Below are positions 8,594 through 55,265 of a stretch of DNA of 64,000 nt, in pieces. How positions within the stretch are numbered: the first letter of the stretch is position 1; each line of letters begins with the position of its first letter. The position numbers were made by a program, and so were the translations under genes. Under the pieces are notes generated by a model. That model ran no database searches. It saw only the letters and a program-made list of their open reading frames with translations, and was not told the DNA's origin. Origin of the DNA: Mobula hypostoma (Eukaryota); NCBI RefSeq assembly GCF_963921235.1, contig NC_086108.1, positions 43,154,001 through 43,218,000 of the forward strand, in the 5' to 3' direction.

Positions 8594-10900
8594 AACAGGA
8601 AATCTGCAGATGCTGGAAATTCAAGCAACACACATCAAAGTTGCTGGTGAACGCAGCAGGCCAGGCAGCATCTCTAGGAAGAGGTACAGTCGACGTTTCA
8701 GGCCGAGACCCTTCGTCAGGACTAACTGAAGGAAGAGTTAGTAAGAGATTTGAAAGTGAGAGGGGGAGGGGGAGATCCAAAATGATAGGAGAAGACAGGA
8801 GGGGGAGGGATGGTGTCAAGAGCTGGACAGGTGATTGGCAAAGGGGATATGAGAGGATCATGGGACAGGAGGCCCAGGGAGAAACACAAGGGGGGGGAAC
8901 AGAGGTTGGGCAAGGGGTATAGTCAGAGGGTCAGAGGGAGAAAAAGGAGAGTGAGAAAAAGAATGTGTGTATAAAAATAAATAATGGATGGGGTACGAGG
9001 GGGAGGTGGGGCATTAGCAGAAGTTAGGGAAGTCAATGTTCATGCCATCAGGTTGGAGGCTACCCAGACGGAATACAAGGTGTTGTTCCTCCAACCTGAG
9101 TGTGGCTTCATCTTTACAGTAGAGGAGGCCGTGGATAGACATGTCAGAATGGGAATGGGATGTGGAATTAAAATGTGTGGCCACTGGGAGATCCTGCTTT
9201 CTCTGGCGGACAGAGTGTAGGTGTTCAGCAAAGTGGTCTCCCAGTCTGCGCGGGTCTTGCCAATATATAGAAGGCCACATCTGGAGCACCGGACGCAGTA
9301 TATCACCCCAGCCGACTTACAGGTGAAGTGTCGCCTCACCTGGAAGGACTGTTTGGGGCCCTAACTGGTGGTAAGGGAGGAAGTGTAAGGGCATGAGTAG
9401 CACTTGTTCCGCTTACAAGGATAAGTGCCAGGAGGGAGATCAGTGGGGAGGGATGGGGGGACGAATGGACAAGGGAGTCGCATAGGGAGCGATCCCTGTG
9501 GAAAGCAGACAGGGTGGGGAGGAAAAGATGTGCTTAGTGGTGGGATCCCGTTGGAGGTGGCAGAAGTTATGGAGAATAATATGTTGGACCCGGAGGCTGG
9601 TGGGGTGGTAGGTGAGGACCAGGGGAACCCTATTCCTAGTGGGGTGGCGGGAGGATGGAGTGAGAGCAGATGTGCGTGAAATGGGGGAGATGCGTTTAAG
9701 AGCAGAGTTGATGGTGGAGGAAGGGAAGCCCCTTTTTTTAAAGAAGGAGGACATCTCCCTCGTCCTGGAATGAAAAGCCTCATCCTGAGAGCAGATGCGG
9801 CGGAGACAGAGGAATTGTGAGAAGGGGATGGTATTTTTGCAAGAGACAGGGTGAGAAGAGGAATAGTCCAGATAGCTGTGAGAGTCAGTAGGCTTATAGT
9901 CGACATCAGTGGATAAGCTGTCTCCAGAGATAGAGACAAAAAGATCTAGAAAGGGGAGGGAGGTGCCGGAAATGGACCAGGTAAACTTGAGGGCAGGGTG
10001 AAAGTTGGAGGCAAAGTTAATAAAGTTAATGAGCTCAGCATGCATGCAGGAAGCAGCGCCAATGCAGTCGTCGATGTAGCGAAGGAAAAGTGGGGGACAG
10101 ATACCAGAATAGGTACGGAACATAATTTGTTCCACAAAGCCGACAAAAAGGCTGGCATAGCTAGGACCCATACGGGTGCCCATAGCTACACCTTTAGTTT
10201 GGAGGAAGTGGGAGGAGCCAAAGGAGAAATTATTAAGAGTAAGGACTAATTCCGCTAGATGGAGCAGAGTGGTGGTAGAGGGGAACTGATTAGGTCTGGA
10301 ATCCAAAAAGGAGAGCTTTGAGACCTTCTGGGGCCCTAACTGGTGGTAAGGGAGGAAGTGTAAGGGCATGAGTAGCACTTGTTCCCTTACAAGGATAAGT
10401 GCCAGGAGGGAGATCAGTGGGGAGGGATGGGGGGCCAAATGGACAAGGGAGTCGCATAGGGAGCGATCCCTGTGGAAAGCAGAGAGGGTGGGGAGGAAAA
10501 GATGTGCTTAGTGGGGGATGGAAGTATATAGGGACTGGACATCCATGGTGAAAATAAAGCGGTGGGGGCCAGGGAACTTAAAATCATCGAAAAGTTTAAG
10601 TGCGTGAGAAGTGTCACGAACATAGGTACGGAGGGATTGAATAAGGGGGGATAAAACCGTGTCGAGGTATGCAGAAACGAGTTCGGTGGGGCAGGAGCAA
10701 GCTGAGACAATAGGTCTGCCAGGACAGGCAGGTTTGTGGATCTTGGGTAGGAGGTAGAAACGGGAAGTGCGAGGTGTGGGAACTATAAGGTTGGTAGCAG
10801 TTGATGGGAGATCCCCTGAGCAGATAAAGTCGGTGATGGTGTGGGAGACAATGGGCTGGTGCTCCTTAGTGGGGTCACGATCGAGGGGTAAATAAGAGGA
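8594..10900 (-). mobile_element. Penelope-like element (RT plus GIY-YIG), 5'-truncated and frameshifted, 6-bp TSD GGATAC
   Basis: PLE RT motifs PKIHK..GRPIVS, MDVQSLYTSIPH, GVAMGT and RYIDD; GIY-YIG VIYCVRCSRCGLLYIGKT; C-terminal QPDGMN. GGATAC occurs at 8588-8593 and 10901-10906, and removing the insert restores the Tx1 reading GGKNVSKV. Confidence 0.93.
8688..8723 (-). ncRNA. Minimal type-I hammerhead ribozyme motif in PLE terminus
   Basis: Minus strand reads AGUC-CUGACGA-A-GGGU-CUCG-GCCU-GAAA-CGUC-GACU: stem I AGUC/GACU, conserved core, stem II, palindromic mini stem III. Confidence 0.75.
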
Positions 10901-12359
10901 GGATACGTTTTTGCCCCCAATGTCCAAGGATTTGTGCATTGTGACCCATCTGACCCTCTCCATCTTGGATTCTCAGATGAACTGAACACAGCTCGGATGA
11001 CTCCCAAGCAGGAGTGAAGAATGGACTACACCTGTACCAAGTACAGCATCCCTGAAAGCACCTCACACCTGGTGATCAGGTTCTTCCCAGTTATCAACAG
11101 GGAGCACCCTCCCCACAGTTCCAATTTCTGTTTTACTTTCCCAGACCACTCCAGCCAACTCTTGTGCATGCCTCGACCTTTCTGAACCAGATACCCAGCA
11201 CCTTCAAGTAATCAGACCCGATGATGAAGGAGACTCTGGATCAATTGGGCCCGTTGCCAAAGACCACGGCCTTGTTCTTCATGTGGTTAACCCTGGTCCG
11301 ATGCCAACTCAAACTGGTTACAAATGCTGATCAATTCTATGAACTGACCTCGGATCTGTGCAGAAGATAGTGATATTATCCATGTACTGGGATATTCTCA
11401 CTTGAGTTCCTCAACTATACAGCAGTGTCACCCCTCTTATGCTCTCATTTTTCCTGATGGCTTTGCAAAGGGTATTATACAGTACACAACCCTGCCTGTC
11501 CTCAGACTTGATGGGGAAGCTATCCGTTTCTCACCCATTGATTTGTACTGCACTACAAATGGATCCAATTCTGATTCCCTCCCCAATTCCCATTTTGGAG
11601 AGTACATCCATCAGGTAAGTGTGTGATATGCTGTCAAAAGACTTTCTCTTAGTCCAAGCTGACCAGGGAGAAATCCACCCCACCCCCCATCCTGCACACA
11701 GGCAATGGTGTCCCTAAACAACATGAGGTTGTCAAAGATCTTCCTGCGAGGTACAGCACAGGGTGGATCATCCATCTCAGAACAGACTTTACCCTGTTGG
11801 TGAACGTAGTCTACATTCAACAGCAAAATGAGTCTCCAATTCCTGATATCATCCCTCTCCCATTTCTGCTTCTAGATGAGGGCAATGATGCCCTTCCTCA
11901 TGGAGTCTGATATGCTGCCAACTAGAAGCATTTAATTGTACACTTCCAGCAGATCTGGACCTATCCAGTCCCACAGAGCCAAGTACAACTTAGCCAGTAA
12001 GCTGTCACTTCCAGGAGTTTTATTCGAGTCAAAGGAATGGATGGAGCCAGTCAGCTCCTCCTGCATCAGTAGCTGGGTCCAGACTCCCCAGCTTACTGTC
12101 ATCTACACCTTCATGATGGACGACAGGAAGTTCTGAGAGGCTGTGGCCTTTCTGTAATATAGGCTGGCATAGAATGATCTGCAGATCCTCAATATATTCG
12201 CCTGTGAGGATGTGACTGAGCTGCCCTCTTCCTTAAAGGATGTGGATCACAGATCCCAGTGAACCTTTTGGACGAAGAAATGTGAGCACATCTCATCCTG
12301 TTTCATGGTGCAGACCCTGGATCTGCAGATGATCTTGGAGGATTTGGTAGTGAATGAGG

Positions 12360-12648
12360 GGTTTAGGCAGGGTAAATATAAGAAGGCGTTTTCCACTGAG
12401 GTTGGGTGGGACTACAACCAGAGGTCATGGGTTAAGGGTGAAAGGTGAGAAGTTTGAGAGGAACATGAATGGAAAACTTCTTCACTCGGAGGGCTGTGAG
12501 AGTGTGGAATGAGCTGCCAGCACGTGGTGCATGCCGAGCTGGATTTCAATGTTTAAGAGAAGTTTGGGAGTCGGCAGTTTAATTGGTTTCAGCATGAACT
12601 AGATGGCAGAATAGTCTGTTTCTGTGCTGTACTTCTCTATGAATCTAT
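12360..12648 (+). mobile_element. CR1 3' fragment inserted in the Tx1 element
   Basis: Encodes FPLRLGGTTTRGHGLRVKGEKF and ends in the tail ttctctatgaatctatg. Confidence 0.8.
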
Positions 12649-12899
12649 GTAGGGCTGGGCTTGCCACCCTTTCACCTCTCGTAACTCCTCCCTCACATCA
12701 TCCACCCCCCCCCCCCACTTTGATTGCAGGAGTTGCTGCAACCGTCTGGAGTCTACACAGTTCCCTCTGACCCTGCCTTGCTTTCTGAACCCCGTTGCAT
12801 CTTGATGCTTTCATTGGTGGCTTCCCACCAGTGAACAGGGGGAATTAAAGAGGGATTTCAAGGTTGTCCAACCGGCATACTTCCTCCCTAGTTCCTTAA

Positions 12900-14030
12900 T
12901 GTTCTCTGGGGTCGGCAGTTTGACCTTCAGCTTCCCCTGCCTGCTTCCGTAGACGACAGTAGGCTCGGAGGAGGCAGTGGTCAGAGAAGAAAACTGGCAC
13001 GACGCCGGTGAACCTGACCCAAAGAGGAAGTCGACCCTCAAGCGGGCTGAGCCGTCTGATCGTGACCAGGTGGGTTGCGATGTGCTCCACCGCAGAGATG
13101 CCAAAGCGTTACGATTTGAACCGTTTCCATCAGGAATCTGGAGGTGCTGCCGGAACTACGGGATCGTCCAGCCGCGTCGATGAGGCAGTTAAAGTCACCG
13201 GTCAGAATAACCGGCTGGGACGTCGCCAGCAGCGGGAGGGGCTTGAGGGGCTCACTCCGCAGGGTGAGGCGTACACTTTAATTAGACGGAGCGGAGCGGA
13301 CATTATTCTGCCTCGAGGAGACGCCCCCCAACAACCGCTGACATGGGTGATTGAGCTGTTGCTTCCCCGTCGCCGGATCCCCGAGCAAGAAGCGCGACAA
13401 TCATTGCCACCCCCACCCCGCGACCAAACAGACAAACCTAGGAGCCACCATCGCCACCACCTCCGGTAGCCCGCACTCCTGAGGGAAAATCACATCAGCC
13501 TTGACTTTGACCAGGTACCATAAGGCGATGACACGTTGCACCGTTCTCTTCACACTACACACGTTCAAATGTGCCCATTTTATATCCATGGTATTACGAT
13601 GAGCAATGTACTACACTTAACCGCGTGTTCTCGGTGGAGAATAGCCGCCGGCCCTTTCTCTTATTACCCGAACCCGACTGCATTCAAACCTGCCGCCTCC
13701 ATCTGCCGTTGGCATCCCGAGACGGCGGGCGGGGCGGAGCCGGGCGCCATCTGACCTTCGACCCCGGGCGCCTGCGCACTCACTCGTTGACCTGCTGCGT
13801 GTGGCGGAGCTGTTCGCTCTCACTGTACTTCGGCGTCGGCGGGTGGCTGCCTCTTCACAGAGCCCACCATGGGCGGCGTGGGGGCTGCAAATGGCATCGA
13901 TGCGCCTCTGCCAGGAAGATGCGGGTATTTCGTGGCAAAGAAAAAGAGATACTGCAAAATGATCGTGGCAGAAGGGAAGCTGCTGTGTGGGGAACATGCG
14001 AATACCGCTTCAGATAACAACGTATGACGA
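12900..14030. promoter_or_regulatory. CpG island and TRMT13 promoter, probably bidirectional
   Basis: Abrupt GC- and CpG-rich block in an AT-rich, CpG-poor window. Tandem GC boxes GGGCGGGGCGG at 13727-13737, a YY1-like GCGCCATCT at about 13744 and an NRF1-like TGCGCA at 13773, all just upstream of the ATG. Confidence 0.8.
13869..14021 (+). CDS. TRMT13: TRMT13 coding exon 1 (MGGVGAANGIDAPLPGRCGYFVAKKKRYCKMIVAEGKLLCGEHANTASDNN)
   Basis: Strong Kozak context gcccaccATGG; CCCH zinc finger; donor gtatga at 14022; phase 0. Confidence 0.92.
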
Positions 14031-14130
14031 TTCTTCAGTAAAGTATTTAGAAGAGTTTTTGCATTATCATCACAATATAACATCTTGGGTTAGAAAGTGT
14101 AGTCAGGACGTATAAAGTTGGCTATAAATT

Positions 14131-14232
14131 ACAAGCAACACACACAAAATGCTGGTGGAACGCAGAAGGCCGGGCAGCATCTATAGGAAAAAGTACAGTC
14201 AACGTTTCGGGTCGAGACCCTTCGTCAGGACC
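14131..14232 (-). mobile_element. Short PLE terminal fragment carrying a hammerhead motif (14197-14232)
   Basis: Matches the 8594-8723 terminus; minus strand GGUC-CUGACGA-A-GGGU-CUCG-ACCC-GAAA-CGUU-GACU. Confidence 0.85.
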
Positions 14233-14604
14233 TGGTCATGTTTTAGACTGGGGTGGACAGCTATGCTTTTTGTCAACAATTCTTAATATTTAGACTTTTT
14301 ACGGCCTCATTTTACATATTGATTCCAGTAATAAACACATGACTACGTGTGTACTTCAATTCAAACATAAAAGTGATATAATTAATTTGGTAGGGAAAGT
14401 GTACTCTTAAAACAGTAAAATGTGCAGGAAAGAAGCAATTCAACTGTAATTATTTGTATAAGTTTATATTCAGTGCTGTAATTTTTTAATAGTACCCTTG
14501 AGTATTAATTGTCTTTGATTCAGATGAAGGTTTTACATTACCTTTTCAAACAAATACAATTATGTTGATATGAAAAAAACTTTTCCTTTCGAGCTCTATA
14601 CTAA

Positions 14605-15250: not shown

Positions 15251-15373
15251 GCTATCCCTGTGCCACTTCCTACATTATAAACGGCTTAATTTGATGCTTT
15301 AGAAAGATGAAAATTAAACAAGTTGGTTCATGAATAGCAGCCAGAATAGTGTTGATGCTTTATTTCCTTCTAG

Positions 15374-15420
15374 GATGAAAACCAACGGAAAAGAATTCCG
15401 TGTCCTCTGGACCCAAAACA
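15374..15420 (+). CDS. TRMT13: TRMT13 coding exon 2 (DENQRKRIPCPLDPKH)
   Basis: Acceptor ttccttctag, donor gtaagt; 47 nt; KRIPCPLDPKH motif. Confidence 0.95.
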
Positions 15421-16086: not shown

Positions 16087-16732
16087 GAGCTACTGACTTT
16101 CATCCTGTGTTTATTGTTATAACTTGTAACAATGTTACAACTTGAAATACGGACAATATAAATACGTGGAAGTTCTGAAATGTTTCAAAGTAAAGGTTGT
16201 GGTATGTTTATTATTTTGAAAATTTATGGATTGTATTCATTAACACAATTACAGGGTATTTCACAATTATATTAACATAGATTTTAAAATTATATCAATA
16301 CTATATAAAGAAAATTCCAGCTGCGAGGCAACAAAGACTATGTGCACAGGAGCATTTCAACTTAGACAGAACAGTGCTCTTCTCTGTATCTTAAATCCCT
16401 AATTTCCCTATCCTATAATGCTGTTGGACTACCTTACCAAGGACTGCAGCAGTTCAAGAAAGCATGTTGCCACTACCTCCAAAGGCATATAAACACTGGC
16501 CTTGCTAATGATGTTCAGCTGTTGATAAACAAGAATAAAAAGACTTTTGCATCAGCTTCATGATCAAATTAATGTGTTATATTGTTACATTTTTATCTAC
16601 AATGACTACTCCAGAGTCTTTTGGAGATGACCACAAATGCATCCATTGGTACTGTTTTAGAATAAAGGATTTACTGGCCTTAAGTCCCTTTAATTTCCCA
16701 AGTGCCTTCTCCTAATAATTGTTAAATTCCTT

Positions 16733-17262
16733 CAACACACATAAAAAATGCTGGTGGAATGCAGCAGGCCAGGCAGCATCTATAGGAAGAGGTACAGTCA
16801 ACGTTTCGGGCCGAGATTCTTCGTCAGGACTAACTGAAAGAAGAGATAGTAAGAGATTTGAGAGGGGGAGGGGGAGATACGAAATGATAGGAGAAGACAG
16901 GAGGGGGAGGGATGGAGCTAAGAGCTGGAAAGTTGATTGGTAAAAGGGATACGAGGCTGGAGAAGGGAGAGGATCATGGGATGGGAGGCTTAGGGAGAAA
17001 GAAAGGGGGTGGGAAGCCCAGAGGATGGGCAAGGAGTATAGTGAGAGGGACAGAGGGAGAAAAAAAAGGAGAATAAAAATAATGAATAAATAAGGGATGG
17101 GGTACGAAGAGGAGATGGGGCATTACGGGAGTTAGAGAAGTCAGTGTTCATGCCATCAGGTTGGAGGCTACCCAGATGGAATATAAGGTGTTGTTCCTCC
17201 AACCTGAGTGTGGCTTCATCTGGGCAATAGAGGAGGCCGTGGATAAACATATCAGAATGGGA
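16733..17262 (-). mobile_element. PLE 3' fragment (end of GIY-YIG plus terminus; hammerhead at 16796-16831)
   Basis: ORF 16990..17250 (IHGLLYC..RLEEQHLIFHLGSLQPDGMN); terminus matches other copies. Confidence 0.9.
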
Positions 17263-18356
17263 GTACTTTTGACACTTAATTCTGTATTTCGAGAAATCAG
17301 AAATATAAGTGTTCCTTCAATTGCTCAGTCATTTCCTGCTTTCCCCATTACAAATTCTCTTGTCATTGTTTTTATGAGTTCCACATTCTTACCTGGCCTT
17401 TTACATTGTTGTAAAGCTCAGGTTTTAAAAAAGATTATTTCTAGTTTACTTTAATATTCTGTATTCTCTATCAATTGTTAAGAATACACATCATAGTCTA
17501 TTCCTTAGCCTTATTAGTCATAACTGATTTCTTCCATTGATCATATTTCTCTAAGTATAGTAATTAGGGATTGTCATTTCTTTAAATTTTTGCTATTGTT
17601 TACCATTTGATTGAATTTGTCACTTTCCTCAGTAAACATTCTTCAAATCTATTTTTTACCAAGTGGCAAGTAACATTTGCACTGTACAAGTCCTAGAAAT
17701 GACCGTGTCTAACAGAAATATTCATTAGAGATATCGGCATCAGATCCCCCATCCGGAACCCTGAACAAAATCCAAAAAGAACCAGCCACACAAATACTGT
17801 ATCAACAAGAGCAGGCCTGAAACTAGATATCTGGATGTGAATAAACACTTCAATCATTCAGGCCATGTGGAAATGACAGACAGGAAAAGACCAGCTGATC
17901 AGTCAAGTCTGCCCCACTTATACAACCTTGTATAAGAAATACAATTTTTTTTTTATCCTTGCCAGTTTTACATTACTGTCTGTGTCCAGATGGATATCTT
18001 ACTGTGAAAGCAGTTTGTCCTCCTCACTGCATTTCCTATTACTTCCCTAGGAATGGGATTCATAATTTTTATGATGAATTCTTCTTATAGTTCTAAGGGA
18101 ACCATTATCTACATATTAGACTTCAAATCCATATAATATTTTGATGCTACAGTAGTCTTATGTGCTAGTGTATTTGGTGAAGGGAATTTCCATACGTTTG
18201 GTGGAGAGAAGAGAAAGAAGAATCTTGGACATTTCGTTGTTTATTTGTTTAATACATGTAAAGTTCAAAGCAAAAGATTCAAGATGGGTTTTGCTGCTTG
18301 CCCACAGTGTTCAAGGACAACAACCACGTTAACCATTTTAGAAATTATACAGAAAT

Positions 18357-18860
18357 GTAAGAGCTGGGAAGTCGATTGGTGAAAGAGAAAAAGGGCTGGA
18401 AAAGAGCACCAGAGAGAGGTGATGGGCAGATAAATAGATGAGGTGAGAGTGGGAAATGGGAATAGTGAAGGAGAAGGGAGGGGTGATCACAATTACTAGA
18501 AGTTCAAGAAATTTATGTTTATGCCATCAGTTTGGAGATTACCCAGATGGAATACAAAGTGTTGCTCCTCCAACCCAAGTGTGGCCTTATTGTGGCAGTA
18601 GAGGAGGAGGCCATGCCCCCCCCCAGCCCTTTATCTCTTTCACCAATTGACTTCCCAGCTCTTTACTTCACCGCTGACCCCTCTTCTGGTTTCACCTATC
18701 ACCTTCTACCTTCCTCTCCTTCCCTCCACCTTTTTACTCTAACTTCTTATCTCAGTTTTCCAGCCTTGATGAAGAGTCTCAGCCAGAAACCTTTACTGTT
18801 TACTCTTCTCCATAGATGCTGCCTGGCCTGCTGAGTTCCTCCAGCATTTTGTGTGTATTA
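18357..18860. mobile_element. Older PLE fragment with internal inversion (minus piece ~18357-18612, plus piece ~18615-18860)
   Basis: GIY-YIG tail on -, then terminus on + with a decayed hammerhead core (TTGATGA...GAAAC); 39-bp inverted repeat at 18361-18399 and 18623-18661. Confidence 0.75.
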
Positions 18861-19073
18861 AAATATTTTTATTTTAATACACGCAAATACACTGAAAGGT
18901 TCATTTTACTTGTAGGCCAAGTCAAATCCCATGCCTGTAGTAGTCTTCTTCTGTTACCTTTCAGTCATTGTCTTTTCAAAAATTAGCAAGATGAGAAAGA
19001 TAAATATTGATCTGTTTGTAATTGAAGTTAGATTCTTAATAATCTAATGTCAAACTACAACATTTTTTTCTAG

Positions 19074-19524: not shown

Positions 19525-21265
19525 GTCAAGGAAGATAATGAGGAATCTGCAGACTATTGAGTCTCATATCAGTATAGGGAAGCGATTCAGATCGATTCTT
19601 AGGGATAGGATTTATGAGTATTTAGAAAACCATGATCTAATTGGGGACAGACAGCTGGTCAAGTTATGTCTTACTAATTTGTTTGAGTTTTTTAAGGAAG
19701 TGATTCTCTGTGGATTTTAGCAAGGTGTTTGACAGGTCCATCATGGTAGGCTCATCCAGAAGATTAAGATGCATGGGTGTAATGTTGAATCGGGTTCCTG
19801 GGTCTGGAAAGTGAGATGGGAAATACACTGACTTCGAATAGGTATATTTGCCATTTATTTACAAACAGTAAAAATTTGACCAAACATTCATGTTCCCCAA
19901 GTTATAGACACTACAAAGCTGAATATTCAACAAACATACTTAGCTAAAAGCGTGCACAGAGTATACCTTCCCATTGGTCATGTGCATCGCTTGCCTTAAA
20001 CAGAAGGAGTGAGACATAACCTCCCACATATGCTTTCTATATACCCAAGTTATTTGAAACTGGACACCAGGCAGCTATCCAATGGGAAAAGCAGCTGCAG
20101 TTTCTAAACTAACCAATCATGACAAGTGACTTTTGACAATCAGAATAAGGCATGGCCTCCACAGGACACTGGGAAACATGGTAACTTGGCCACTTAGATT
20201 CGGAATTGACTTGGCATAAAAGACAGGGTAGTAGTTGATGGGACTATTCTGGGTAGGTGTCTGTGACCAGTGGCATTCTGCAGGGATCTGTACTGGGACC
20301 TCTGCTATTTATGACCTGATTGAAAATGTGGATGGTTGGGTTAGTAAGTTTGCAGATGATGCAAAGATTGGTGGTGGTGTGGATAGCGTAAAAGATTGCC
20401 AAAGAATATAGCAGGATATAGGCCAATTGGACATGTGACAGAGAAATGGCAGATGGAGTTTAAGCTAAGTGTTAGGTGTTGCTCTTTGGGAGATCAAATA
20501 TAAAGTGACGGTACACTATTAACGGTGAGACCCTTAACATTGTTGGGGTACAGAGCGATCCTGGGTCCAGGTCCATAGCCCCCTGAAATTGGCTGCACAG
20601 GTTGATGGGGGATTAAAAAAAAGGTCTATGGCATGCTTGCCTTTATTTGTTGAGATATTGAGTTCAGGAATCAGGAAGTTGCGTTGCAGCTTTATAAAAC
20701 TCTAGTTAGGGCCACATCTGGAATATTGCATTCTTTTCTGCCCTATCTTAGGATGGACGCGGAACCTTTGGAGTAGGTACAGAAGACGTTTACCAGGTTG
20801 CTGTATGGATTAGTAAACCTGTGCTATAAAGAGAGATTAGGCAAATTTGGGTTGTTTTTTCTGGAACAGCAGGGACTGAGAGAGACCTGAAAGAAGTTTA
20901 TAAGATTGAGAGGCATAAATAGACAGCTGGTATCTTTATCCCAGGGTCAAAGTGCCTAATACTAGAGGACATACATTTAAGGTGAAAGGGCACAAGTTCA
21001 AAGGAAATCGGTAGAGCAAAAGTTTTTTTTTTACACAGAGTCTTGGGTGTCTGGAATGATCTGCCAGGGGTGGTGGTGGCAAATATGGCAGGGGTGTTTA
21101 AGAGGGTTTTAGACAGGCACATTGATGTGTAGAGAATGGAGGAATATGGACGTTGTTGGCAAAATGGATTAGTTTAGTTAGGCATTTAACTCATTTAATA
21201 AGTTCAGCGGACCATCATGAGCTACAGTGCCTGTTCCTGTGCAGTACTGTTCAACGTTTTTATGT
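19525..21265 (+). mobile_element. Degenerate CR1 LINE (RT to tail) in TRMT13 intron 3, interrupted by a solo LTR
   Basis: ILRDRIYEYLENH..CLTNLFEFF, KFADD region near 20345, CR1 tail near 21250. Confidence 0.85.
19778..20168 (-). mobile_element. Solo LTR, about 391 bp
   Basis: TGT...ACA termini; flanks ATGGG and CTGGG (5-bp TSD, one mismatch); CR1 sequence resumes after it. On - it shows CCAAT/ATTGG boxes, then TATATA (~20040), then AATAAA (19854-19859). Confidence 0.7.
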
Positions 21266-25885: not shown

Positions 25886-25956
25886 TGCAGCTGTTTTATG
25901 TATAACACGGTATAACTGCTTTATGTGTTTTCTCTCGTATAATAACAATTTCAGTA

Positions 25957-27573
25957 CAGGTGTCCCCCGCATTTCGAATGTTAGCTTTACGAAACCTCAC
26001 TGTTACGAAAGATCTACATTAGTTACGTGTTTTAGCTAACAGAAGGTGTTTTCACTGTTACAAAAAAAGGCAGCGCGCGAAAAAAGGTAGCGTGTGAAAA
26101 AAGGCAGCACGTGCCCCGAGCAGCCGCTCTCCCCCGGATTTGGAACGCCATTCTCGCCAGCATTGCTTAAACACATGCCTGTGAGCAGCCGTTTGCAAAA
26201 TGAGTTCTAAGGTATCAGAAAAGCCTAAAAGAGCTCATAAGGGTGTTACACTTAGCGTAAAACTAGACATAATTAAGCGTTTCGATCGTGGTGAACGAAG
26301 TAAGGACAAAGTGAGTTTGACTTGTGGAAGTTGACAAAGATGATGTTGAAGAGGTTTGGCATCCCATGACCAAGAACTGATAGGTGAAGAGCTGATGCAA
26401 TTGGAAGAGGAAAGGTTAACAATCGAAACCGAATGTAGTAGTGAACGGACCGAAAGTGAAGTCGTCCAGGAACTGAACGTGATGCAACTGCGTGAGATTT
26501 TCGCTGCAATGATAAAGTACGACTTTAATTTTGAAAGGGTACGTCGGTTTAGGGCATATTTACAAGATGGTTTGAGTGCTTACAAAGAACTGTATGGTAG
26601 AAAAATGCATGGGGCTAGCGGTCAAGCAAATCTTCAGCAGACGACGAACCTCGACCTTCGACATCGAGGCAGGCAGACGTAGAAGAAGATGACCTGCCTG
26701 CCCTGATCGACAATGAGATGACACCCCAGTGTCCCACCATCCCAACCCCTGGGCTGCGGACAGATACAAATTCACGGAGAATGCAGCGGTAGCCGGAATG
26801 CACCCAGCACATCTTTAAGAAAAAAGCCGAAATAAACAAGCTAATTAATTAGGTGCCGCCCGGCACGTAAATGTTGGCCCAGATCAGAGCCGATTGCGGA
26901 TTGCATCGCCTCTGATCTGGGCCGACATTTATGTGCCGGACAGCACCTAATTAATTAGTTTGTTTATTTTGGCTTTTTTCTTAAAGATGTGCTGGGTGCA
27001 TCCCAGCTACCGCTGTACCCCTGCATGCTTTGTGGATCAGTATCGGTTTGCTGCCCAGAGGGTGGGGGCCACTGCACCACCCCAACCTCCGACAGCTCAG
27101 CCTAACACACCATCATCAGTGTGCTCGATGTCTTCCTGATTCCCATAAGTGATACTACACTGTACATACATTATTTCCAATTTATATCGGCTGTGTATTT
27201 TTAGGTGTTATTTGGTATGATTTGGCAGCTTCGTAGCTTAAAGGTTACTGGAGAGCGCTTGCGCCGTGTTTTTGCCGACAGCGCTAGCGTGAGATTTTCG
27301 CTACAGAGAACAGCGCAGGCAGTGATTGTAGAGAAGTATTTCTACTTTATATAGGTGCTGTATTTATCATATCATTCCTGCTTTTACTATATGTTACTGT
27401 TATTTTCGGATATATGTGTTATTTTGCATGATTTGGTAGGTTATTTTTGGGTCTGCAAACGCTCACAAATTTTTCCCATATAAATAAATGCTAATTGCTT
27501 CTTCACTTTACGACCTTCCAGCTTACGAACCGTTTCATGGGAACACTCTACCTCGGATGGCGGGGGAAACCTG
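25957..27573 (+). mobile_element. Non-autonomous Tigger/pogo DNA transposon, internally deleted
   Basis: TA-flanked TIRs CAGGTGTCCCCCGC and GCGGGGGAAACCTG. An N-terminal HTH peptide MSSKVSEKPKRAHKGVTLSVKLDIIKRFDRGER (from 26200) is joined to a C-terminal SHDQELIGEELMQLEEER segment; no DDD domain. Confidence 0.88.
26782..27017. repeat. Long inverted repeat (hairpin, arms about 110 bp)
   Basis: cagcggtagc..cacccagcacatctttaagaaaaaagcc..ctaattaattaggtgc..ggcccagatcagag is mirrored by ctctgatctgggcc..gcacctaattaattag..ggcttttttcttaaagatgtgctgggtg..gctaccgctg. Confidence 0.95.
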
Positions 27574-28485: not shown

Positions 28486-28583
28486 CAGAGGGACCTTAAC
28501 ATCCAATTTCATAGCTCCATGAAAGTGGCTGCACGAGTTGATGGCATGTTTGCCTTTAATAGTCAAGGCATTGAGATTAAGAG

Positions 28584-37397: not shown

Positions 37398-38322
37398 CAC
37401 ACAGGGGACTGTCTTGTCTCCCTTTCTCTTCACCATTTACACCTCAGACTTCAACTACTGCACAGAGTCTTGTCATCTTCAGAAGTTTTTGGATGACTCT
37501 GCCATAATTGGATGCATCAGTAAGGGAGGTGAGGCTGAGTACAGGGCTACGGGTGTGAGCAGAATTGTCTGTAGCTTAATGTGAAAAAGACTAAGGAGCT
37601 GGTGGTAGACCTGAGGAGAGCTAAGGTACCGGTGACCCCTGTTTCCATCCAGGGGGTCAGTGTGGACATGGTGGAGGATTACAAATACCTAGGGATACGA
37701 ATTGACAATAAACTGGACTGGTCAAAGAACACTGAGGCTGTCTACAAGAAGGGTCAGAGCCGTCTCTATTTCCTGAGGAGACTGAGGTCCCTTAACATCT
37801 GCCGGACAGTGCTGAGGATGTTCTACGAGTCTGTGGTGGCCAGTGCTATCATGTTTGCTGTTGTATGCTGGGGCAGCAGGCTGAGGGTGGCAGACACCAA
37901 CAGAATCAACAAACTCATTCGTAAGGCCAGTGATGTTGTGGGGATGGAACTGGACTCTCTCACGGTGGTGTCTGAAAAGAGGATGCTGTCCAAGTTGCAT
38001 GCCATCTTGGTCAATGTCTCCCATCCATTATATAATGTACTGGGTGGGCACAGAAGTACATTCAGCCAGAGACTCATTCCACCGAGATGCAACACAGAGC
38101 GTCATCGGAAGTCATTCCTGCCTGTGGCCATCAAACTTTACAACTCCTCCCTTGGAGGGTCAGACATCCTGAGCCGATAGGCTGGTCCTGGACTTATTTC
38201 ATAATTTACTGGCATAATTTACATATTACTATTTAACTATTTATGGTTCTATTACTATTTATTATTTATGGAGCAACTGTAACGAAAACCAATTTCCCCC
38301 GGGATTAATAAAGTATGACTAT
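37398..38322 (+). mobile_element. Young Rex1/Babar LINE 3' part (RT C-terminal half)
   Basis: QGTVLSPFLFTIYTSDF..LQKFLDDSAI; ORF 37581..38180 (KTKELVVD..YKYLG..KGQSRLYFLRRLRS..SFLPVAIKLYN); ends gggattaataaagtatgact. Confidence 0.9.
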
Positions 38323-42290: not shown

Positions 42291-42507
42291 AACACTGAAT
42301 GTAGAGGAAAGAGAACACGTGGGACGCCTGTGCAAACTGTTGATAGACCATGGCCGGATCTGGTATTTGCAGCAGCGGGGATTTGATTCTGCTTTGCAGT
42401 ATTACACTAGTACCAGCATCTCACTGGAAAATGTCCTGCTCACAGCTGTTCCCCATCCAACAACTAAACAAACTGAGGACTCTGAAATAAGATTCAATGT
42501 TTTTTAA
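42291..42507 (+). CDS. TRMT13: TRMT13 last coding exon (TLNVEEREHVGRLCKLLIDHGRIWYLQQRGFDSALQYY...SLENVLLTAVP...NVF*)
   Basis: Acceptor atcccctcag; phase matches exon 10; TAA stop ends at 42507. Confidence 0.95.
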
Positions 42508-42603: not shown

Positions 42604-42612
42604 TTTAATAAA
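42604..42612. terminator. Candidate poly(A) signal(s): AATAAA on + (42607-42612) overlapping ATTAAA on - (42604-42609)
   Basis: TTTAATAAA lies about 100 nt after the TRMT13 stop and about 180 nt after the LRRC39 stop. A T/GT-rich tract follows on +. Confidence 0.55.
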
Positions 42613-42848: not shown

Positions 42849-43530
42849 CTGAAAGAGAGAAAAAAAAGTTTGGAGTTTTATATACAGTGTTCAGTAGGTA
42901 TTTTCTGTCTTGTATATGTAAAGTAGTCAAAACATTTTTTAATAAGCATTTACAGTTTCATTTTAAATTGCACAAAGACTAATTTCACTGGGTCTTTTTT
43001 TACTGGCTATAACTTCGTATAAAATTGTAGTATAGTTTTGTGGTTTTCCACAAAACAATTATTTAATCAATAACAAAATTAACTAAGTTAAAACTATCAA
43101 CAGTACTATACAATATTATTACGGAAGAAAGATTGTTATTATTGAAATATGCTGTGACTATATGGAATTGCATTTATTAATTTACATGTGCTTTACTCCA
43201 AAAGACTTAAACGTGTGTGATTTGCACTCATGTCTGACTTCCACTCTGGTAGAGTTGCCATGCATCTCTCATCTTCCTTGATATGTAAGTTTCCTGAATG
43301 ATGTTAAACTGGGTATTTAAATAACACTCCAGCAAGTGTTTGGATACCATTTCCAGAATACTCTATGTAAGTGTGGCTCAGGAATGGCATAGAACCTGCT
43401 TACCCACAAAGTCTGAAGCCTGGAGTAATTAGAAGTAATTAGCTAAACCTAAGGTAATAAGCTAAAAATTGAGTTTCAGTGGTGCTCTCCCAACCAATGT
43501 GCCTTGGGCAAAACAACAAATTTCACAATA

Positions 43531-44051
43531 CACATCAAAGTTGGAGGAACAACACCTTATATTCCGTCCAGGTAGCTTCCAACCTGATGGCATGAACATT
43601 GACTTCTCTAACTCCGCTAATGCCCCACCTCCCCCCGTACCCCATCCGTTATTTATTTATATACACACATTCTTTTTCTCTCTCTCTCTCCTTTTTCTCC
43701 CTCTGTCCCTCTCACTATACCCCTTGCCCATCCTCTGGGTTTTTCCCCCCCTCCCCCTTTTCCTTCTCCCTGGGCCTCCTGTCCCATGATCCTGTCATAT
43801 CCCCTTTGCCAATCACCTGTCCAGCTCTTGGTTCCATCCCTCCCCCTCCTGTCTTCTCCTATCATTTTGGATTTCCCCCTCCCACTTTCAAATCCCTTAC
43901 TCACTCTTCCTTCAGTTAGTCCTGACGAAGGGTCTCGGTCTGAAACGTCGACTGTACCTCTTCCTAGAGATGCTGCCTGGCCTGCTGCGTTCACCAGCAA
44001 CTTTAATGTGTGTTGCTTGAATTTCCAGCATCTGCAGAATTCCTCGTGTTT
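43531..44051 (+). mobile_element. PLE 3' fragment, 13-bp TSD, hammerhead at 43918-43953
   Basis: LEEQHLIF..QPDGMNIDF plus terminus; AAATTTCACAATA at 43518-43530 and 44052-44064. Confidence 0.92.
43918..43953 (+). ncRNA. Minimal type-I hammerhead ribozyme motif
   Basis: AGUC-CUGACGA-A-GGGU-CUCG-GUCU-GAAA-CGUC-GACU. Confidence 0.7.
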
Positions 44052-44235
44052 AAATTTCACAATATGTCAGTGATAACAAATCTGATTCTGATACTGTGAA
44101 CCAAAATCCAGCCCCACTCATGTCTTGATCTCAATTACTTTAGCAAAGGGATCCAAACTTCCATATGCCAGATCTTCTATCCACCATGACATAACTGATA
44201 CCTGCAGCTCAATCTTTAAGGGCAACAGTGACCGT

Positions 44236-47895: not shown

Positions 47896-48036
<141 letters not shown>

Positions 48037-49078
48037 TTAACATACATTAACAGTATCAGTGCAGAGATAGGGTAATTTTTGTTTTGCTCAGCATGATCAG
48101 TTTTTTTTTTAAACGGACATAGCCAAGATTTGTAATCATGCATGCCTTTACCAAATAGCATTCCAGTATTCTTATATAGCACCCTGGTTTTCTCTTTATC
48201 AAGGCTATTTAGAGTTAGCCAAAACCTAAACCTTATTACTTATAGGTGGGGAAAACAGAAACAAAAGGCAGTGCTCACTCAGGTACTAGTATTTTGCTGT
48301 ATTTCAATGCCTTGTTTGGAAACTATCTTTCAGTCACAGTTTGCTAAGCCATTCAGAAGGGGTATCCAATGCTAAACTTTCTAACATAAATAGGACTGCC
48401 AGCACTAAGTCATAGGCTAACGCCACACAATCTGTATTTCCAGAAAACAAAAGGTCCACTTATTTGGTTTAAACAATTACAGTTCACAACCTAGATAAAA
48501 GAACATGTAATTCTCAAAGAAAAATGTCTCTTAAGTGCAGAAAATGGCAATGAAAAGTGATGAAATTATAAAAAAATAATAAAGCTGTGCATAGAGGGAA
48601 CTGGAAAAGTTTTCAAGGGACATAGCGGCATATACGTTTGTAGTAGTACTTCTTCCCAATACAGGTCTTAAAAAATAACATACAAATGGCACATCAATGG
48701 CAGATCAGGTGTGACTTTAAGGAAATCCCAGCCATTTTAATGATTTTTTTCCTACACAGAGGAAAAGGGAAAAACAACCAAGGCAGTGTAATGAGAGGAA
48801 ATAATCTTGAAATTTGTTATACTCAATAAAAAGATGAGATGTATAGCCAGGAATTGATGGGTCTATCCTAGACCTTTAAAAGAAACTGATGAGAAAATTA
48901 AAGACATAACTTAAAGTTCCCTACATTCAAATATTACAAAATGTCCATGTGAAGAACTTACTGGCTTGGCCTTCAACCTTTGTTCTCATCAGTCAATAAT
49001 TTTCTACTAGGTAAAATGAATTAGCTAGAAATTACTGATTACCAAGTTCATATAGAACAAATAGTTTCTAGTACTTTA

Positions 49079-49234
<156 letters not shown>

Positions 49235-50039
49235 TTAAGTAGAAAAATAAGAGCATTTTAGTAAATAAATGCTAAGTACGTTACTGCTTTTAGAAATTCT
49301 GATGGCTTTGTGTAGATATTTTTGTAGGTTTTCATCTGTCATCCACTGCACTATTTAACCATGTAATAATTATATTTTTTGTACCTTGCTATTGTCAGAG
49401 GTCCTGAAACACCATCAACCTCGCTGGGTTCTCCCGAGACACATTGCTTGACCTATTGAGTATTTTCAGCTTTCCCCCACCCCTCCAGATTCGTCATCAT
49501 TTGCAGTTTTTTTTGTTAATTTTTTATTACCGTCACATTTGTAACGCTCTGTTGAATTCAGCTCTATACTTCAATATTTTTTAAAGTTTTACTTCTAGTG
49601 ATTACAAACAGTAATAATTCTAGCAAGACTCCCAGAAAGTTGAAATTGGAATTTTCCTCTTGATTACTGTGCCTTATTTGTAATTGCTTTTGGTTGATCC
49701 AGAGCACTTCAGTTCAACAGGAGAAAAGCGAAAATTAACTTTTACTATGGGACTTTTATCCTCTCTCTTTACCAAGATTCCTAAAGCTGGATTGAAAAAG
49801 AAAGTGGAAGCAGTCATTTGGTTCTGCCACAATAATGATATGCAGAAAGGGAAATTAGTTTTACTTGGAGGTTCAAAATGATGTATTAACTGAGCATGTA
49901 AAGGACGATGTGAAAATAGAAAACTTTTAAAGGAAAAACTGGCAGAAGTAACTGAATGAAATGCAAGGTGGACTGTAATAAAATAACACAAATGTGATTG
50001 GGAAATTTGGAAGAAATTGAGAAAATTATTTCTTTGTTA

Positions 50040-50186
<147 letters not shown>

Positions 50187-51179
50187 CTAAGCAAGTGAAG
50201 GACATTTACAAAAAGAAAATTTAATCCTACACTTTCTTTTTCAACAATTGCAAAAACAAAAAAAACATTCACAGCTAACGTTAACAAAACAAATTTTTTT
50301 ACCTAGCCCTAAATCTCCATAGTGAACCATTGCACATGAAACATATTTTGCATGGAGGCTAGGATCAAAACACAATGTAGTTTGTTTGGAGCACGGTCAA
50401 GCAGATTTTATGCTCATTCCATGTGCTCCATTGAACATGAAGTTCCAGGAGATGATTTGGTCCCATAATCTGAGTTGTTGGGCCAATTACATAACCATAT
50501 CCAGTAATGGTGTGTGAATGTTTACAAATTTGTGCACAGGTTATTTTTAAATCAATTATCCATAGCCGTTAAATAGCTTATATAACAATGACCAATCTGA
50601 AACAAGAGTGTTCAAAGAACCAATGTGGTAAATTGAGTTGCCAGGATACATTTGTAGGGCAGAGAAAATAATAGAAGAAACAAGCTGTAATGCCTTGAAT
50701 AATCATGCAGACAGTCTCAAATTCTTTAATCATTTCCAAGTTCATTCCATTCATTGCATAATAGTGCCATTTAAACCCACCTATTCTTGGCATTCAACTT
50801 CCTGTGAGATACCAGTGTCCAGAAATTTATTTGGACCAGCCATATAAATACTGCAGTTATGACTGCAGATTCCATGCTGGGCATCATAACAGCAACTGAC
50901 TCATCTCCTGACCCCTGCAAAGCCTTCCTACCATCAACAAGCACAAGTCGTCACTGTGATAGAATAAGCCCTACATGCCTAATGTGTTTATCTCCTTCAA
51001 CATTTTCAAACTTGATTTCATCTAAGGCAAGGTAGTCCATTTGATTGGCACCTTACGTACCGCCATAATTATCGATTCCTTCCATCTCCGGTGCACGGTG
51101 CCCACAGATTTCCCTCCAACGATACCTTGCCTAAGATACCCCAAATCCATGACTGCTAATACCAGGAACAAGGTATTCT

Positions 51180-51790
51180 CATTCAGGAGGCAGCAGTGGA
51201 AAGGGTAAGCAGCTTCAAGTTCCTGAGTATCAACATCTCGGAGGATCTATCCTGGGCAATCACAAAAAACCACAATAGTAGCTATACTTTATTAGAAGTT
51301 TGAGGAGATCTGGTATGTCACCAAAGTCTTTAGTGAAGACTTCTAGAGATGCCCCATGGAGAACATTCTGACTGGTTGCATCACTGCCTGGTATGGAGAC
51401 TCTAATGAACAGGATCACAAGAGGCTATAGAGGGTTGTGGACTCAGCCAACTCCAAACGAGCCTCCCCACCTTCAAGGACACCTCCACAAGGTGCTGCTT
51501 CAAGTAGGCAGCATCCATCATCAAGTACCTTCACCATCTGGGACATGCCTTCTTCTCATTGCTACCATCAGGACGGAGGTTCAGGAGACTGAAGATGTTT
51601 TGGGAACAGCTTTTTCTCCTCCACCATCAGATTTCTGAATGCTGTTTGAATCCATGAACACTGCCTCATTGTTCCACCTTTGTATAATTTTTTTTGCTGT
51701 AACGTAGGTTTTTTTTTAAATGTCTTGCACTGTAGTGCTGTCACAAAACAACTAATTTCATGACATGTCAGTGGTAACAATTTTGATTCC
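51180..51790 (+). mobile_element. Rex1/Babar-type LINE 3' fragment
   Basis: SSFKFLSINISEDLSW, NILTGCITAWYG and LLPSG-like segments; tail like other copies. Confidence 0.7.
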
Positions 51791-52532
51791 ATCAGTAGGT
51801 CTACATCCTGGAAGATCCTACCCACCAGCATTGTGGGACTACCATCATCCAGCAGCTCCCCAGGCCCTTCTCAAGAGCAATAAGGGTTGGACATTAATTA
51901 TCTACAACACAAAAACAGAGTAAAAAAGAAAAATATGGACAAGACTGTAGATTCTAGAAATTCTAAAATAACAACATAAAAGGTCAAATTAATATTTTTG
52001 CTCAACACTATCCTAGCTTCTTTCAAATAGATGTTGTTTGGTGTCAGGTGAATACAGTAGTTCCAGCAATGTTTAGAATTTTGTATGAATTTGGATTTTT
52101 TTGTATTAATTTGCCAAAGCATTTATGTCAGTCCAAACTAAGCTACAAAACTACCAGCTCTCTAGAAAGGAGCCCTGAAAATGTATTGGAGTGCATAATC
52201 CTCCTTCCTGAGATTTCATTCCAAAGTACAGAATAGTTACGGTAGTGAGGCAAACTACTGAGTCAAGTCCAGTCAATTAGTGTCATTGCAAACTTTCTCC
52301 AGGATTCTGCAAATTCTTCTTTCAGATATTTATCCAGTTTCCTGTTGAACACCACGATTTATATTGCCTCTACAAAGACACCTGGCAAAGCATTCCGGGA
52401 CATAATCAGTCACTGCAATAAAAAAATCCTCTTGCCTTTTGTTCTTTGCCGATTATCATTATTCTACATGACTTCTATGCCAATGGAGATAGTTTCTCTC
52501 TTCTCAGGAGCTTAAACACCTCTATCATTTAT

Positions 52533-54790
52533 AGTCATATAACAATACAGCATAGAAACAGGCCCTTTAGCCCATCTACATAACCATATAACAATTACAG
52601 CACGGAAACAGGCCATCTCGGCCCTTCTAGTCCGTGCCGAACGCTTACTCTCACCTAGTCCCACTGACCTGCACTCAGCCCATAACCCTCCATTCCTTTC
52701 CTGTCCATATACCTATCCAATTTTACTTTAAATGACAATATCGAACCTGCCTCTACCACTTCTGCTGGAAGCTCGTTCCACACAGCTACCACTCTCTAAG
52801 TAAAGAAGTTCCCCCTCCTGTTACCCCTAAACTTTTGCCCCCTAACTCTCAACTCATGTCCTCTTGTTTGAATCTCCCCAACTCTCAATGGAAAAAGCCT
52901 ATCCACGTCAACTCTATCTATCCCCCTCATAATTTTAAATACCTCTATTAAGTCCCCCCTCAACCTTCTACGCTCCAAAGAATAAAGACCTAACTTGTTC
53001 AACCTTGTTTTGTAACTTAGGTGCTGAAACCCAGGCAACATTCTACTAAATCTTCTCTGTACTCTCTCTATTTTGTTGACATCTTTCCTATAAATCGGTG
53101 ACCAGAACTGTACACAGTACTCCAAATTTGGCCTTACCAATGCCTTGTACAATTTTAATATTACATTCCAACTCCTTTACTCAATGCTCTGATTTATAAA
53201 GGCCAGCATACCAAAAGATTTCTTCACCACCCTATCCACATGAGATTCCACCTTCAGGGAACTATACACCATTATTCCTAGATCCTTCTGTTCTACTGCA
53301 TTCTTCAATGCCCTACCATTTAGTATGTATGTCCTATTTTGATTAGTCCTACCAAAATGTAGCACCTCAATTTATCAGCATTAAACTCCATCAGCCATCT
53401 TTCAGCCCACTTACTGGCCCAAATCTCTCTGCAAGCTTTGAAAACCTACTTCATTATCCACAATGCCACCTATCTTAGTATCATCTGCATACTTACTAAT
53501 CCAATTTACCACCCCATCATCCAGATCATGAATGTATATGACAAACAACATTGGACCCAGTACAGATCCCTGAGGCACACCACCAGTCACTGGCCTCCAA
53601 TCTGACAAACATTTATCCACCATTACTCTCTGGCGTCTCCCATCCAGCCACTGCTGAATCCATTTTACTACTTCAATATTGATACCTAACGATTGAACCC
53701 TCCTAACTAACCTTCCGTGTGGAACCTTATCAAAGGCTTTACTGAAGTCCATATAGACAACATCCGCTGCTTTACCCTCGTCAACTTTCCTAGTAACCTC
53801 TTCAAAAAATTCAATAAGATTTGTCAAACATGACCTTCCACACACAAATCCATGTTGACTGTTCCTAATCAGACCCTGTCTATCCAGATAATTATATATA
53901 CCATCTCTAAGAATACTTTCCATCAATTTACCCACCACTGACGTCAAACTCACAGGCCGATAATTGCTAGGTTTACTCTTAGAACCCTTTTTAAACAATG
54001 GAACAACATGAGCAATACGCCAATCCTCCAGCACCGTCCCCATTTATAATGACATTTGAAATACTTCTGTCACAGCCCCTATTTCTACACTAACTTCCCT
54101 CAAGGTCCTAGGGAATATCCTGTCAGGACATAGAGACTTATGCACTTTTATATTCCTTAAAAGCGCCAGTACTTCCTCTGCTTTAATCATCATAGTTTCC
54201 ACAACTTCCCTACCTGTTTCCCGTACCTTACACAATTCAATTTCCTTCTCCTTAGTGAATACCGAAGAAATTGTTCAATATCTCCCCCATCTCTTTTGGT
54301 TCCACACATAGCTGTCCACTCTGATTCTCTAAGGGACCAATTTTATCCCTCACTATCCTTTTGCTATTAATATAACAATAGAAACCCTTTGGATTTACTT
54401 TCACCTTACTTGCCAAAGCAACCTCGTATCTTTTAGCTTTTATAATTTCCTTCTTAAGATTATTTTTACATTCTTTATATTCCTCAAGCACTTCATTTAC
54501 TCCATGCTGCCTATATTTATTGTAGATATCTTTTTCGGAACCAAGTTTCCAATATCCCTTGAAAACCATGGCTCTCTCAAACTTTTAACCTTTCCTTTCA
54601 AGCTAACAGGAACATAAAGATTCTGTACCCTCAAAATTTCACCTTTAAATTACCTCCATTTCTCTATTACATCCTTCCCATAAAACAATTTGTCCCAATC
54701 CAATCCTTCTAAATCCCTTTGCATCCCTTCAAAGTTAGCCTTTTTCCAATCAAAAATCTCAACCCTGGGTCCAGACCTATCCTATCATAT
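52533..54790 (-). mobile_element. CR1 LINE ORF2 (RT to tail), several frameshifts, in LRRC39 intron
   Basis: ORFs 52796..53152, 53177..53365, 53411..54043 (YMDFSKAFD, GVPQGSVLGP, KYADD) and 54044..54569. Confidence 0.93.
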
Positions 54791-54794
54791 CTAG

Positions 54795-55265
54795 GCAAAC
54801 ACGAGGAAATCTGCAGATGCTGGGATTTCAAACAACACACACAAAAGTTGCTGGTGAACGCTGCAGGCCAGGCAGCATCTCCAGGAAGAGGTACAGTCGA
54901 CGTTTCGGGCCGAGACCCTTCATCAGGACTAACTGAAAGAAGAGCTAGTAAGGGATTTGAAAGTGGGAGGGGGAGAGGAGATCAGAAATGATAGGAGAAG
55001 ACAGGAGGGGGAGGGATAGAGCCAAGAGCTGGACAGTTGATTGGCAAAAGGGATATGAGAGGATCATGGGACAGGAGGCCTAGGGAGAAAGAAAAGGGGG
55101 GGAGCCTGAAGGATGGGCAAAGGGTATAGTGAGGGGGACAGAGGGAGAAAAAGGAGAGAGAGAAAAATAATGTGTGTATATAAATAAATAATGGATGGGG
55201 TACGAGGGGGAGGTGGAGCATTAGCGGAAGTTTGAGAAGTCAATGTTCACGCCATCAGGTTGGAA
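54795..55265 (-). mobile_element. PLE 3' fragment with hammerhead at 54895-54930
   Basis: Near-identical to 8594-9060 and to the reverse complement of 43580-44051. Confidence 0.92.
54895..54930 (-). ncRNA. Minimal type-I hammerhead ribozyme motif, best-formed copy
   Basis: AGUC-CUGAUGA-A-GGGU-CUCG-GCCC-GAAA-CGUC-GACU. Confidence 0.78.

Follow-up and report, generated by a model that had tools for sequence, protein, structure and literature searches.

Minimal hammerhead ribozymes (min-HHRs) were described in 2014 by Cervera and De la Peña from the pseudo-long terminal repeats (pLTRs) of metazoan Penelope-like elements, or PLEs (PMC4209133). Five copies of such a motif, and a decayed sixth, are found in a stretch of 64,000 nucleotides from Mobula hypostoma (RefSeq assembly GCF_963921235.1, contig NC_086108.1, positions 43,154,001 to 43,218,000), hereafter the window, in whose own numbering all coordinates are given. 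According to the accessible text of the 2014 paper, a nucleotide that separates position 9 from 10.1 and a palindromic 15.2-16.2 segment are features of the class, min-HHRs are present in the Neptune elements of fishes, and no cleavage was seen for a single min-HHR and weak cleavage for dimers. The available part of its supplementary file 2 gives the consensus CUGANGAH, with U17 common and a G10.1-U11.1 pair that can be read in 8 or more of the 56 rows in Fig. S3. A search of file 2 for names of sharks, skates or chimaeras found none (file 1 was not searched), so the present family is apparently absent from its list. A literature search, with most subscription papers outside its reach, listed no result devoted to PLE hammerheads from sharks or rays and nothing usable on the measured effects of GUU or of G10.1-U11.1.

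Neptune is a clade of endonuclease-bearing (EN+) PLEs with a reverse transcriptase (RT), a CX2-5CxxC linker that marks Neptune and Nematis, and a GIY-YIG endonuclease (accessible text of PMC8557442), and PLEs may end in an optional tail of 30-40 nucleotides (PMC8557442, PMC11167929). Among vertebrates, the groups on record are Neptune and Poseidon (bioRxiv 10.64898/2026.07.22.740005). In PAc, a Poseidon element from the anole, the hammerhead cleaved only in the presence of protein and was dispensable for insertion in vitro, and reverse transcription starts internally at two sites that the tail sets apart (PMC11167929). Type-I hammerheads derived from PLE pLTRs are also carried by non-LTR retrozymes, reported in one chondrichthyan genome by the same bioRxiv study, whose supplements may cover the family described here. 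A further point of comparison is given by the conserved intronic hammerheads of amniotes, in RECK and other genes (PMC6155905).

The motifs of the window are very probably minimal type-I hammerheads from the pLTR of a very abundant Neptune-type PLE of a cartilaginous fish, present here as solitary, dead fragments, with the motif kept by selection on the source elements. Their kind has been known since 2014, and a cartilaginous-fish family is now added to it. With the published class they share CUGANGA followed by an extra nucleotide, a stem II starting at G10.1, GAAA, a palindromic 15.2-16.2 without loop 3 and a short stem I, as well as a pyrimidine-rich 5' side, a 3'-terminal position in truncated PLEs and a mostly single-copy arrangement; a row for the Acropora Neptune in PMC4209133 has the same core and stem III. 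The stem II of the window motifs, in contrast, has 4 bp and stands at the short end of the class. The order RT-linker-GIY-YIG, a hammerhead near the 3' end, an optional tail and inverted joints agree with what PMC8557442 describes for the Neptune clade, although all window copies are truncated or broken and form no tandem unit. Poseidon elements lack the linker, unlike the element of the window. With PAc it shares a pair of 3' end sites, separated by the length of a tail and situated about 65-100 nucleotides downstream of the hammerhead, and a hammerhead that lacks a stable stem III; the open reading frame (ORF) of PAc, however, starts inside the hammerhead, whereas most copies of the window family have C7 and so no AUG there. 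Non-LTR retrozymes, as described in the available text, form tandem arrays with a hammerhead per unit, whereas the six window copies are solitary. As in the amniote cases, one type-I hammerhead (54895, below) lies in an intron, but those are single, canonical and conserved across species, and the window copies are young repeats without a real stem III or shown constraint.

Hammerhead motifs and the element that carries them

The preliminary description placed five hammerhead motifs at 8688-8723(-), 14197-14232(-), 16796-16831(-), 43918-43953(+) and 54895-54930(-), and all were recovered at these coordinates and strands by re-reading and by a pattern search; the decayed copy that it put near 18765-18795(+) was located at 18762-18798(+). 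The core pattern (CUGANGA, 4-30 nucleotides, GAAACG) has five matches in the window against 0.06 expected and at most one in any of 100 shuffles, although the five are copies of one repeat family and hence non-independent. Fuzzy searches were run separately with the motif and with the sequence behind it; both returned the identical six loci of the window and none extra, and the four long copies are mutually 83-91% alike over 450-560 nucleotides.

The residues C3, U4, G5, A6, G8, A9, G12, A13, A14, A15.1 and U16.1 are present in all five listed copies, which also hold the complete class core including N7 and H17. This is not the case for the decayed sixth, in which C3, stem III, the cleavage site and G1.1 are altered. 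Stem III is, as had been described, an ACGU palindrome without a loop in all five. The stem I sequence attributed to every copy (AGUC/GACU) holds for the others but not for 14197, whose 5' arm reads GGUC. Likewise, the paired stem II claimed for four copies exists formally in each; in the GUCU-closed 43918 copy, however, which carries a private change, three of the four pairs are G-U and the energy is +3.1 kcal/mol, so that it is nearly as damaged as the stem II of 16796 (+5.1 kcal/mol), correctly singled out as such before. Stem II is stable in the remaining three of the five copies, namely 54895 (-5.1 kcal/mol), 14197 (-4.8) and 8688 (-2.5). The best-preserved hammerhead of the set is that of 54895, with stem II GGGU/GCCC; that of 8688 combines a full core and GUC with G10.1-U11.1. 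The 10.1-11.1 pair is G-C in three of the six copies, G-U in two and unpaired in one, and the cleavage-site triplet reads GUC in 8688 and 54895, and GUU in 14197 and 16796. The motif fits the published consensus, and the reading as minimal type-I hammerheads on PLE ends, with a palindromic stem III that needs a partner, is supported.

An unpaired A stands between 9 and 10.1, before stem II, in all six copies, and was at first taken for a variant of interest. A nucleotide at this place is already listed as a class feature in the accessible text of PMC4209133, and therefore it is no new variant. An alternative register that pairs this A with U11.1 is less stable in all five copies and was rejected. 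The covariance models, suggested as a check, did not recognize the motifs: in the window, nothing in Rfam reached the gathering threshold, and the best copy (54780-55000) had no match at E<=10. Frames of 135-150 amino acids cross the motifs; the one tested has no Pfam match, and such frames are attributed to chance in pyrimidine-rich DNA.

Each motif lies about 60-100 nucleotides inside the 3' end of a 5'-truncated PLE. The element at 8594-10900(-) comprises an RT (10894-9506), the linker and the start of GIY-YIG (9462-9253), the rest of the endonuclease (9250-9017), a pyrimidine-rich stretch, the hammerhead about 290 nucleotides after the endonuclease stop, a hairpin and a tail. Two full-length relatives with Pfam RVT_1 and GIY-YIG domains (P0010 and P0048) matched it by tblastn at 10894-9506, 9462-9253 and 9250-9035, in order and with E 1e-122 or better, and the broken pieces from the window gave no Pfam match by themselves. 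A C-x4-C-x2-C linker is found at about 9418-9388(-), before the endonuclease. The best named RT relatives, among the 120 listed of 192 passing from 1431 candidates, come from Chiloscyllium punctatum and Stegostoma tigrinum and show 66-68% identity. Judged by the linker, which is common to Neptune and Nematis, and by the order of RT and GIY-YIG rather than by a tree, the carrier would be a Neptune-type PLE. Its ORF is disrupted by stops, frameshifts and an internal 193-nucleotide duplicate. This duplicate, a 97%-identical copy of the RT-linker junction (10329-10519 = 9354-9546, -), replaces a short RT segment and likely stems from a template jump or a later rearrangement. The PLE itself interrupts an older LINE-like frame (LINE, long interspersed nuclear element), with a 6-nucleotide repeat at both junctions (10901-10906 and 8588-8593) and the frame continuing across. 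The interrupted element, decayed and assigned to its family by eye, extends over about 7300-13580(-), with an endonuclease-like frame near 13460-13580 and RT-like frames around 11000 and 8400.

The other copies are shorter. Those at 16796, 18765, 43918 and 54895 start inside the last endonuclease codons, and 14197 starts at stem I. The 14197 hammerhead thus makes up the 5' part of a very short tailless fragment (14130-14232, -) that begins at the 5' edge of stem I, and 16796 is carried by a tailless fragment reaching from the endonuclease end to past the hammerhead (16732-17265, -). The decayed hammerhead belongs to an older copy of a second, diverged family (18490-18858, +). Tailed fragments are found at 43531-44051(+) and 54795-55267(-), the latter adjoining a LINE fragment at its 5' end. 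Two classes of 3' ends can be distinguished in the six, since three copies stop just past a GU-rich hairpin and three extend about 35 nucleotides further, into the tail. The 43918 copy is flanked by a 13-nucleotide target-site duplication (43518-43530 and 44052-44064), where none of 300 random pairs shares 10 or more letters; no such duplication was found for 16796, 54895 or 18765. The first eight letters of the 14197 fragment (14224-14231, -) recur about 20 nucleotides past its 3' end (14102-14109), and may be a target-site repeat in which microhomology set the 5' junction, although 17 of 300 random pairs share at least eight letters and the observation is weak. All six copies are solitary and at least 2.0 kb apart, and the window holds no tandem pLTR-ORF-pLTR unit. 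In the folds, the hairpin forms downstream of the cleavage site at 43950-44051(+) and in the matching parts of 8688 and 54895, and the tail pairs back to sequence about 20 nucleotides after the hammerhead in two of the three tailed copies (folding z -0.9 to -1.2).

By analogy with published relatives, the life of such an element can be outlined. In an active tandem element, the transcript would carry two motifs, or an element protein would help a single one; the ACGU palindromes of two motifs would pair into a stem III, and the RNA would be cut slowly after GUC. Reverse transcription would start about 65 or about 100 nucleotides downstream of the motif and would usually stop early, as a result of which nearly every fragment would terminate in a single hammerhead, some followed by the tail of about 35 nucleotides and some not. 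Once inserted, the motif decays like its flanks.

Decay and possible constraint across the family

Contigs of four of the 24 listed sequencing runs (X1, X5, X9 and X10) were aligned to 43860-44060 (201 nucleotides) at 80% likeness. X9 is a presumed RNA run; no site at which many molecules end was listed for it, although RNA ends are not visible in contigs. The variant figures draw on 40 of 41 variant rows, the loose ends on 24 of 951 rows and the joints on 15 of 40 rows. The 3' loose ends accumulate at 44051-44052 in all four runs, and among the joint rows listed (X1 and X5) there are inverted joints from 44014-44018 to 44051-44052; both match the optional PLE tail of 30-40 nucleotides. Among the loose ends listed, the sequence of a diverged family parts from the reference at both motif borders, 43918 and 43955.

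Outside CpG, variants of at least 3% are found at none of ten core positions and at one of 26 motif positions, and the extra A shows no such variant in any of the four runs. The fixed core positions point to constraint on the source elements, not on the copies, and the data weakly suggest that the motif is conserved between source lineages. After insertion, the CpGs of the motif decay much as those of the flanks. In X1, the core changes C15.2U (9.3%), G16.2A (10.3%), C17U (7.5%), G1.1A (8.5%) and G12A (5.5%, or 18% of the X1 share having C11.1) compare with 11-13% for the CpG changes of loop 2 and 12-15% for those of the flanks. G12 is the general base of the hammerhead, according to the accessible text of PMC6155905, so its loss would not be tolerated by an active ribozyme. 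The family is young and very abundant and comprises several subfamilies, making it good material on selection that acts in source elements only, and useful for asking whether PLE hammerheads need a dimer, an element protein or splicing.

The copies of the window show the same decay. The four long copies of the first family (of the six) share 91.4% identity within the motif, compared with 89.3% for the upstream and 92.7% for the downstream sequence. All ten differences from the five-copy majority are transitions, five of them at CpG. The variants that close stem II had been offered as support for pairing, which they do not provide: none is compensatory, and the G-U 'compatible' ones are what C-to-T decay yields unaided. 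Compensatory changes were found in none of eight stem pairs across the six copies, a test of low power because the sample is small and young; the run data carry no linkage between positions. As for the subfamilies, U11.1 (43941) is the main allele in X1 (70%), X5 (64%) and X9 (81%) and a minor one in X10 (14%), shares that the U of the reference may inflate; they suggest that a subfamily with the weaker G10.1-U11.1 pair has expanded in some species.

Several points weigh against the preferred reading or limit its support. Matching contigs number at least 96,276 in X1, at least 60,048 in X5, 3,768 in X9 and 18,717 in X10, but contig depths are not copy counts, and the family size, on the order of 10^5 copies, would follow by extrapolation from six copies per 64 kb. 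The depletion of non-CpG variants in the motif compares with 17 of 65 positions downstream (Fisher p 0.011) or 17 of 94 (p 0.059), and with 21 of 124 when the two flanks are combined (p 0.069); this test is weak, since its windows were chosen after the data were seen and CpG positions and two private reference changes were excluded. At the CpG formed by positions 7 and 8, G8A is rarer than C7U in all four runs (4.1% versus 9.5% in X1), whereas in the four remaining pairs that are fully CpG the two changes are roughly balanced or tilted towards G>A; the rarity of G8A may reflect an inherited U7 or could indicate some selection on G8. No copy folds better than its own shuffles (z -0.27 to +1.03 in six short folds), an active-like monomer fold is preferred in none, and where stems I and II form, the arm of stem III pairs with the core. 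In a nearest-neighbour model, the double hammerhead of the three best copies reaches -11 to -16 kcal/mol versus -31 to -34 for other two-strand folds. The folding alone would thus give no support even for family-type activity, although this is weak evidence because the models omit core contacts. Finally, cleavage is a prediction for these copies, the window has no intact tandem element showing both pLTRs, and the choice of Neptune over Nematis follows the groups reported in vertebrates and not a tree.

The border of stem I and rival explanations

The 5' arm of stem I coincides with a candidate 3' splice site at 43896-43919(+), consisting of a branch-point-like heptamer, a pyrimidine tract, a CAG before stem I and a TAG inside its 5' arm. 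The same arrangement of heptamer, tract and AG precedes 8688, 16796 and 54895, and with other letters also 18765, from the second family. A simple acceptor filter, devised after the arrangement was seen, is passed by 34 of the 8583 AGs of the window, four of which are these stem I sites. The accessible text of PMC4209133 describes an intron of D. virilis Penelope that ends in helix I, and introns in the 5' untranslated region have been suspected in other PLEs. The stem I border is also marked in the contigs, where 9 of the 12 listed joints with letters between (of 76; X1 and X5) end at 43917-43919. The deepest of these, from 43954 to 43918 with one letter between, would represent a head-to-tail repeat of the hammerhead only, if both sides are on one strand. 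A pile of loose ends at 43918 resembles a truncation hot spot, but its consensus terminates like the sequence upstream in another family, so the pile is at least partly a family border.

From this arrangement it can be proposed, as a rather unlikely but specific idea, that the 5' arm of stem I doubles as a candidate spliceosomal 3' splice site in Neptune elements of sharks and rays and has been retained by both diverged families. By exchanging the sequence needed to complete stem I, splicing would act as a switch for the ribozyme, and cDNA synthesis would preferentially end or jump at this border. If true, the arrangement of Drosophila Penelope would extend to vertebrates, and some 10^5 dispersed copies would be potential cryptic acceptors in host introns. 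A related and improbable explanation holds that the motif is kept mainly for a non-catalytic job, such as a structure over the 3' splice site gating splicing, protein binding or the cDNA end, with cleavage being vestigial. The acceptor-like letters at stem I in both families, the D. virilis intron and the joints ending at 43917-43919 would fit this, as would the weaker G10.1-U11.1 pair being the commonest allele in X1 and X5 and the anole hammerhead mutants, which are described in PMC11167929 as without effect on insertion in vitro. However, it is the catalytic residues and not the stems alone that are fixed at non-CpG positions, a fixation that a purely structural role does not need. Both proposals also meet the objection that the whole upstream stretch is pyrimidine-rich, so that the first AG is acceptor-like by composition; the sites go back to two events that were copied, and among the rows listed for X9, a minority of the total, there is no joint spliced into the motif.

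It is very unlikely that host pre-mRNA is cleaved or regulated by some of the copies, 54895 first, through trans pairing with other copies or with the aid of proteins. This copy does have a full core, a stable stem II and a sense orientation in an intron, the family is abundant with matching contigs in the presumed RNA run, and the anole hammerhead cleaves once protein is added (PMC11167929). Yet it has no same-strand partner in its gene and a single min-HHR did not cleave in the experiments available from PMC4209133; the active-like fold is preferred in no copy, core CpGs decay family-wide, and the anole RNA-seq, in the accessible part of PMC11167929, has no reads ending at the cut site. Least credible of all, and close to negligible, is the idea that the likeness to a hammerhead arose by chance in one repeat family and that no ribozyme ever existed there. 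It would account for the lack of covariation, of an Rfam match and of a folding signal, and for five copies that are one event copied, but the agreement with the published class covers all core residues, the spacing, the two stems, the additional nucleotide and the palindrome, and extends to the place within a PLE. Chance matches to a similar pattern behave differently: of 95 loci, 91 in metagenome contigs and four in viral contigs, none is related to the element by blastn or tblastx, and only one has both stems of four pairs.

Host genes and other elements in the window

TRMT13 is encoded at 13868-42612(+), with exon pieces at 13868-14022, from 19048, 33336, 33575 and 39219 onwards, and at 42291-42490, Pfam matches to zf-TRM13_CCCH and TRM13, and a poly(A) signal at 42607. 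A leucine-rich-repeat (LRR) gene lies at about 48030-60135(-) and continues beyond 60135, with exon pieces 59917-60135, 56437-56721, 50040-50186 and 49079-49234; from vertebrate synteny we take it to be LRRC39. The preliminary description saw a self-cleaving module dispersed through these two genes, which the orientations do not bear out. The 8688 copy, about 5.1 kb upstream of TRMT13 with no host exon found around it, and the 43918 copy, located 1.3 kb beyond the first poly(A) signal of TRMT13 and before a second (44599), are outside the coding spans; 14197 (in intron 1) and 16796 are antisense in TRMT13 introns, and 18765 is sense there, with a broken core. Only 54895, in an LRR-gene intron, is both intact and sense to its host gene. 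There is no sign of a role of the copies for TRMT13 or the LRR gene. A divergent gene near 8688 was searched for with Pfam and short motifs in 41 of the 104 minus-strand frames below 8700 and one at 13620-14009, with no match; SASS6, presumably the usual neighbour of TRMT13, was not found in that search.

Besides the PLEs, a TRMT13 intron contains a young, near-intact LINE at 28581-31553(+), with an open frame of 990 amino acids holding endonuclease and RT domains (Pfam), and its decayed relatives are found at about 2400-4300, 20170-21150, 35200-36900, 52600-54050 and 61600-63520. An imperfect palindrome of 326 nucleotides (26741-27066), 81% identical to its own reverse complement, is possibly a miniature inverted-repeat transposable element (MITE). 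The frame at 37575-38180(+) has a Pfam match to ALKBH8_N and resembles the end of another LINE RT.

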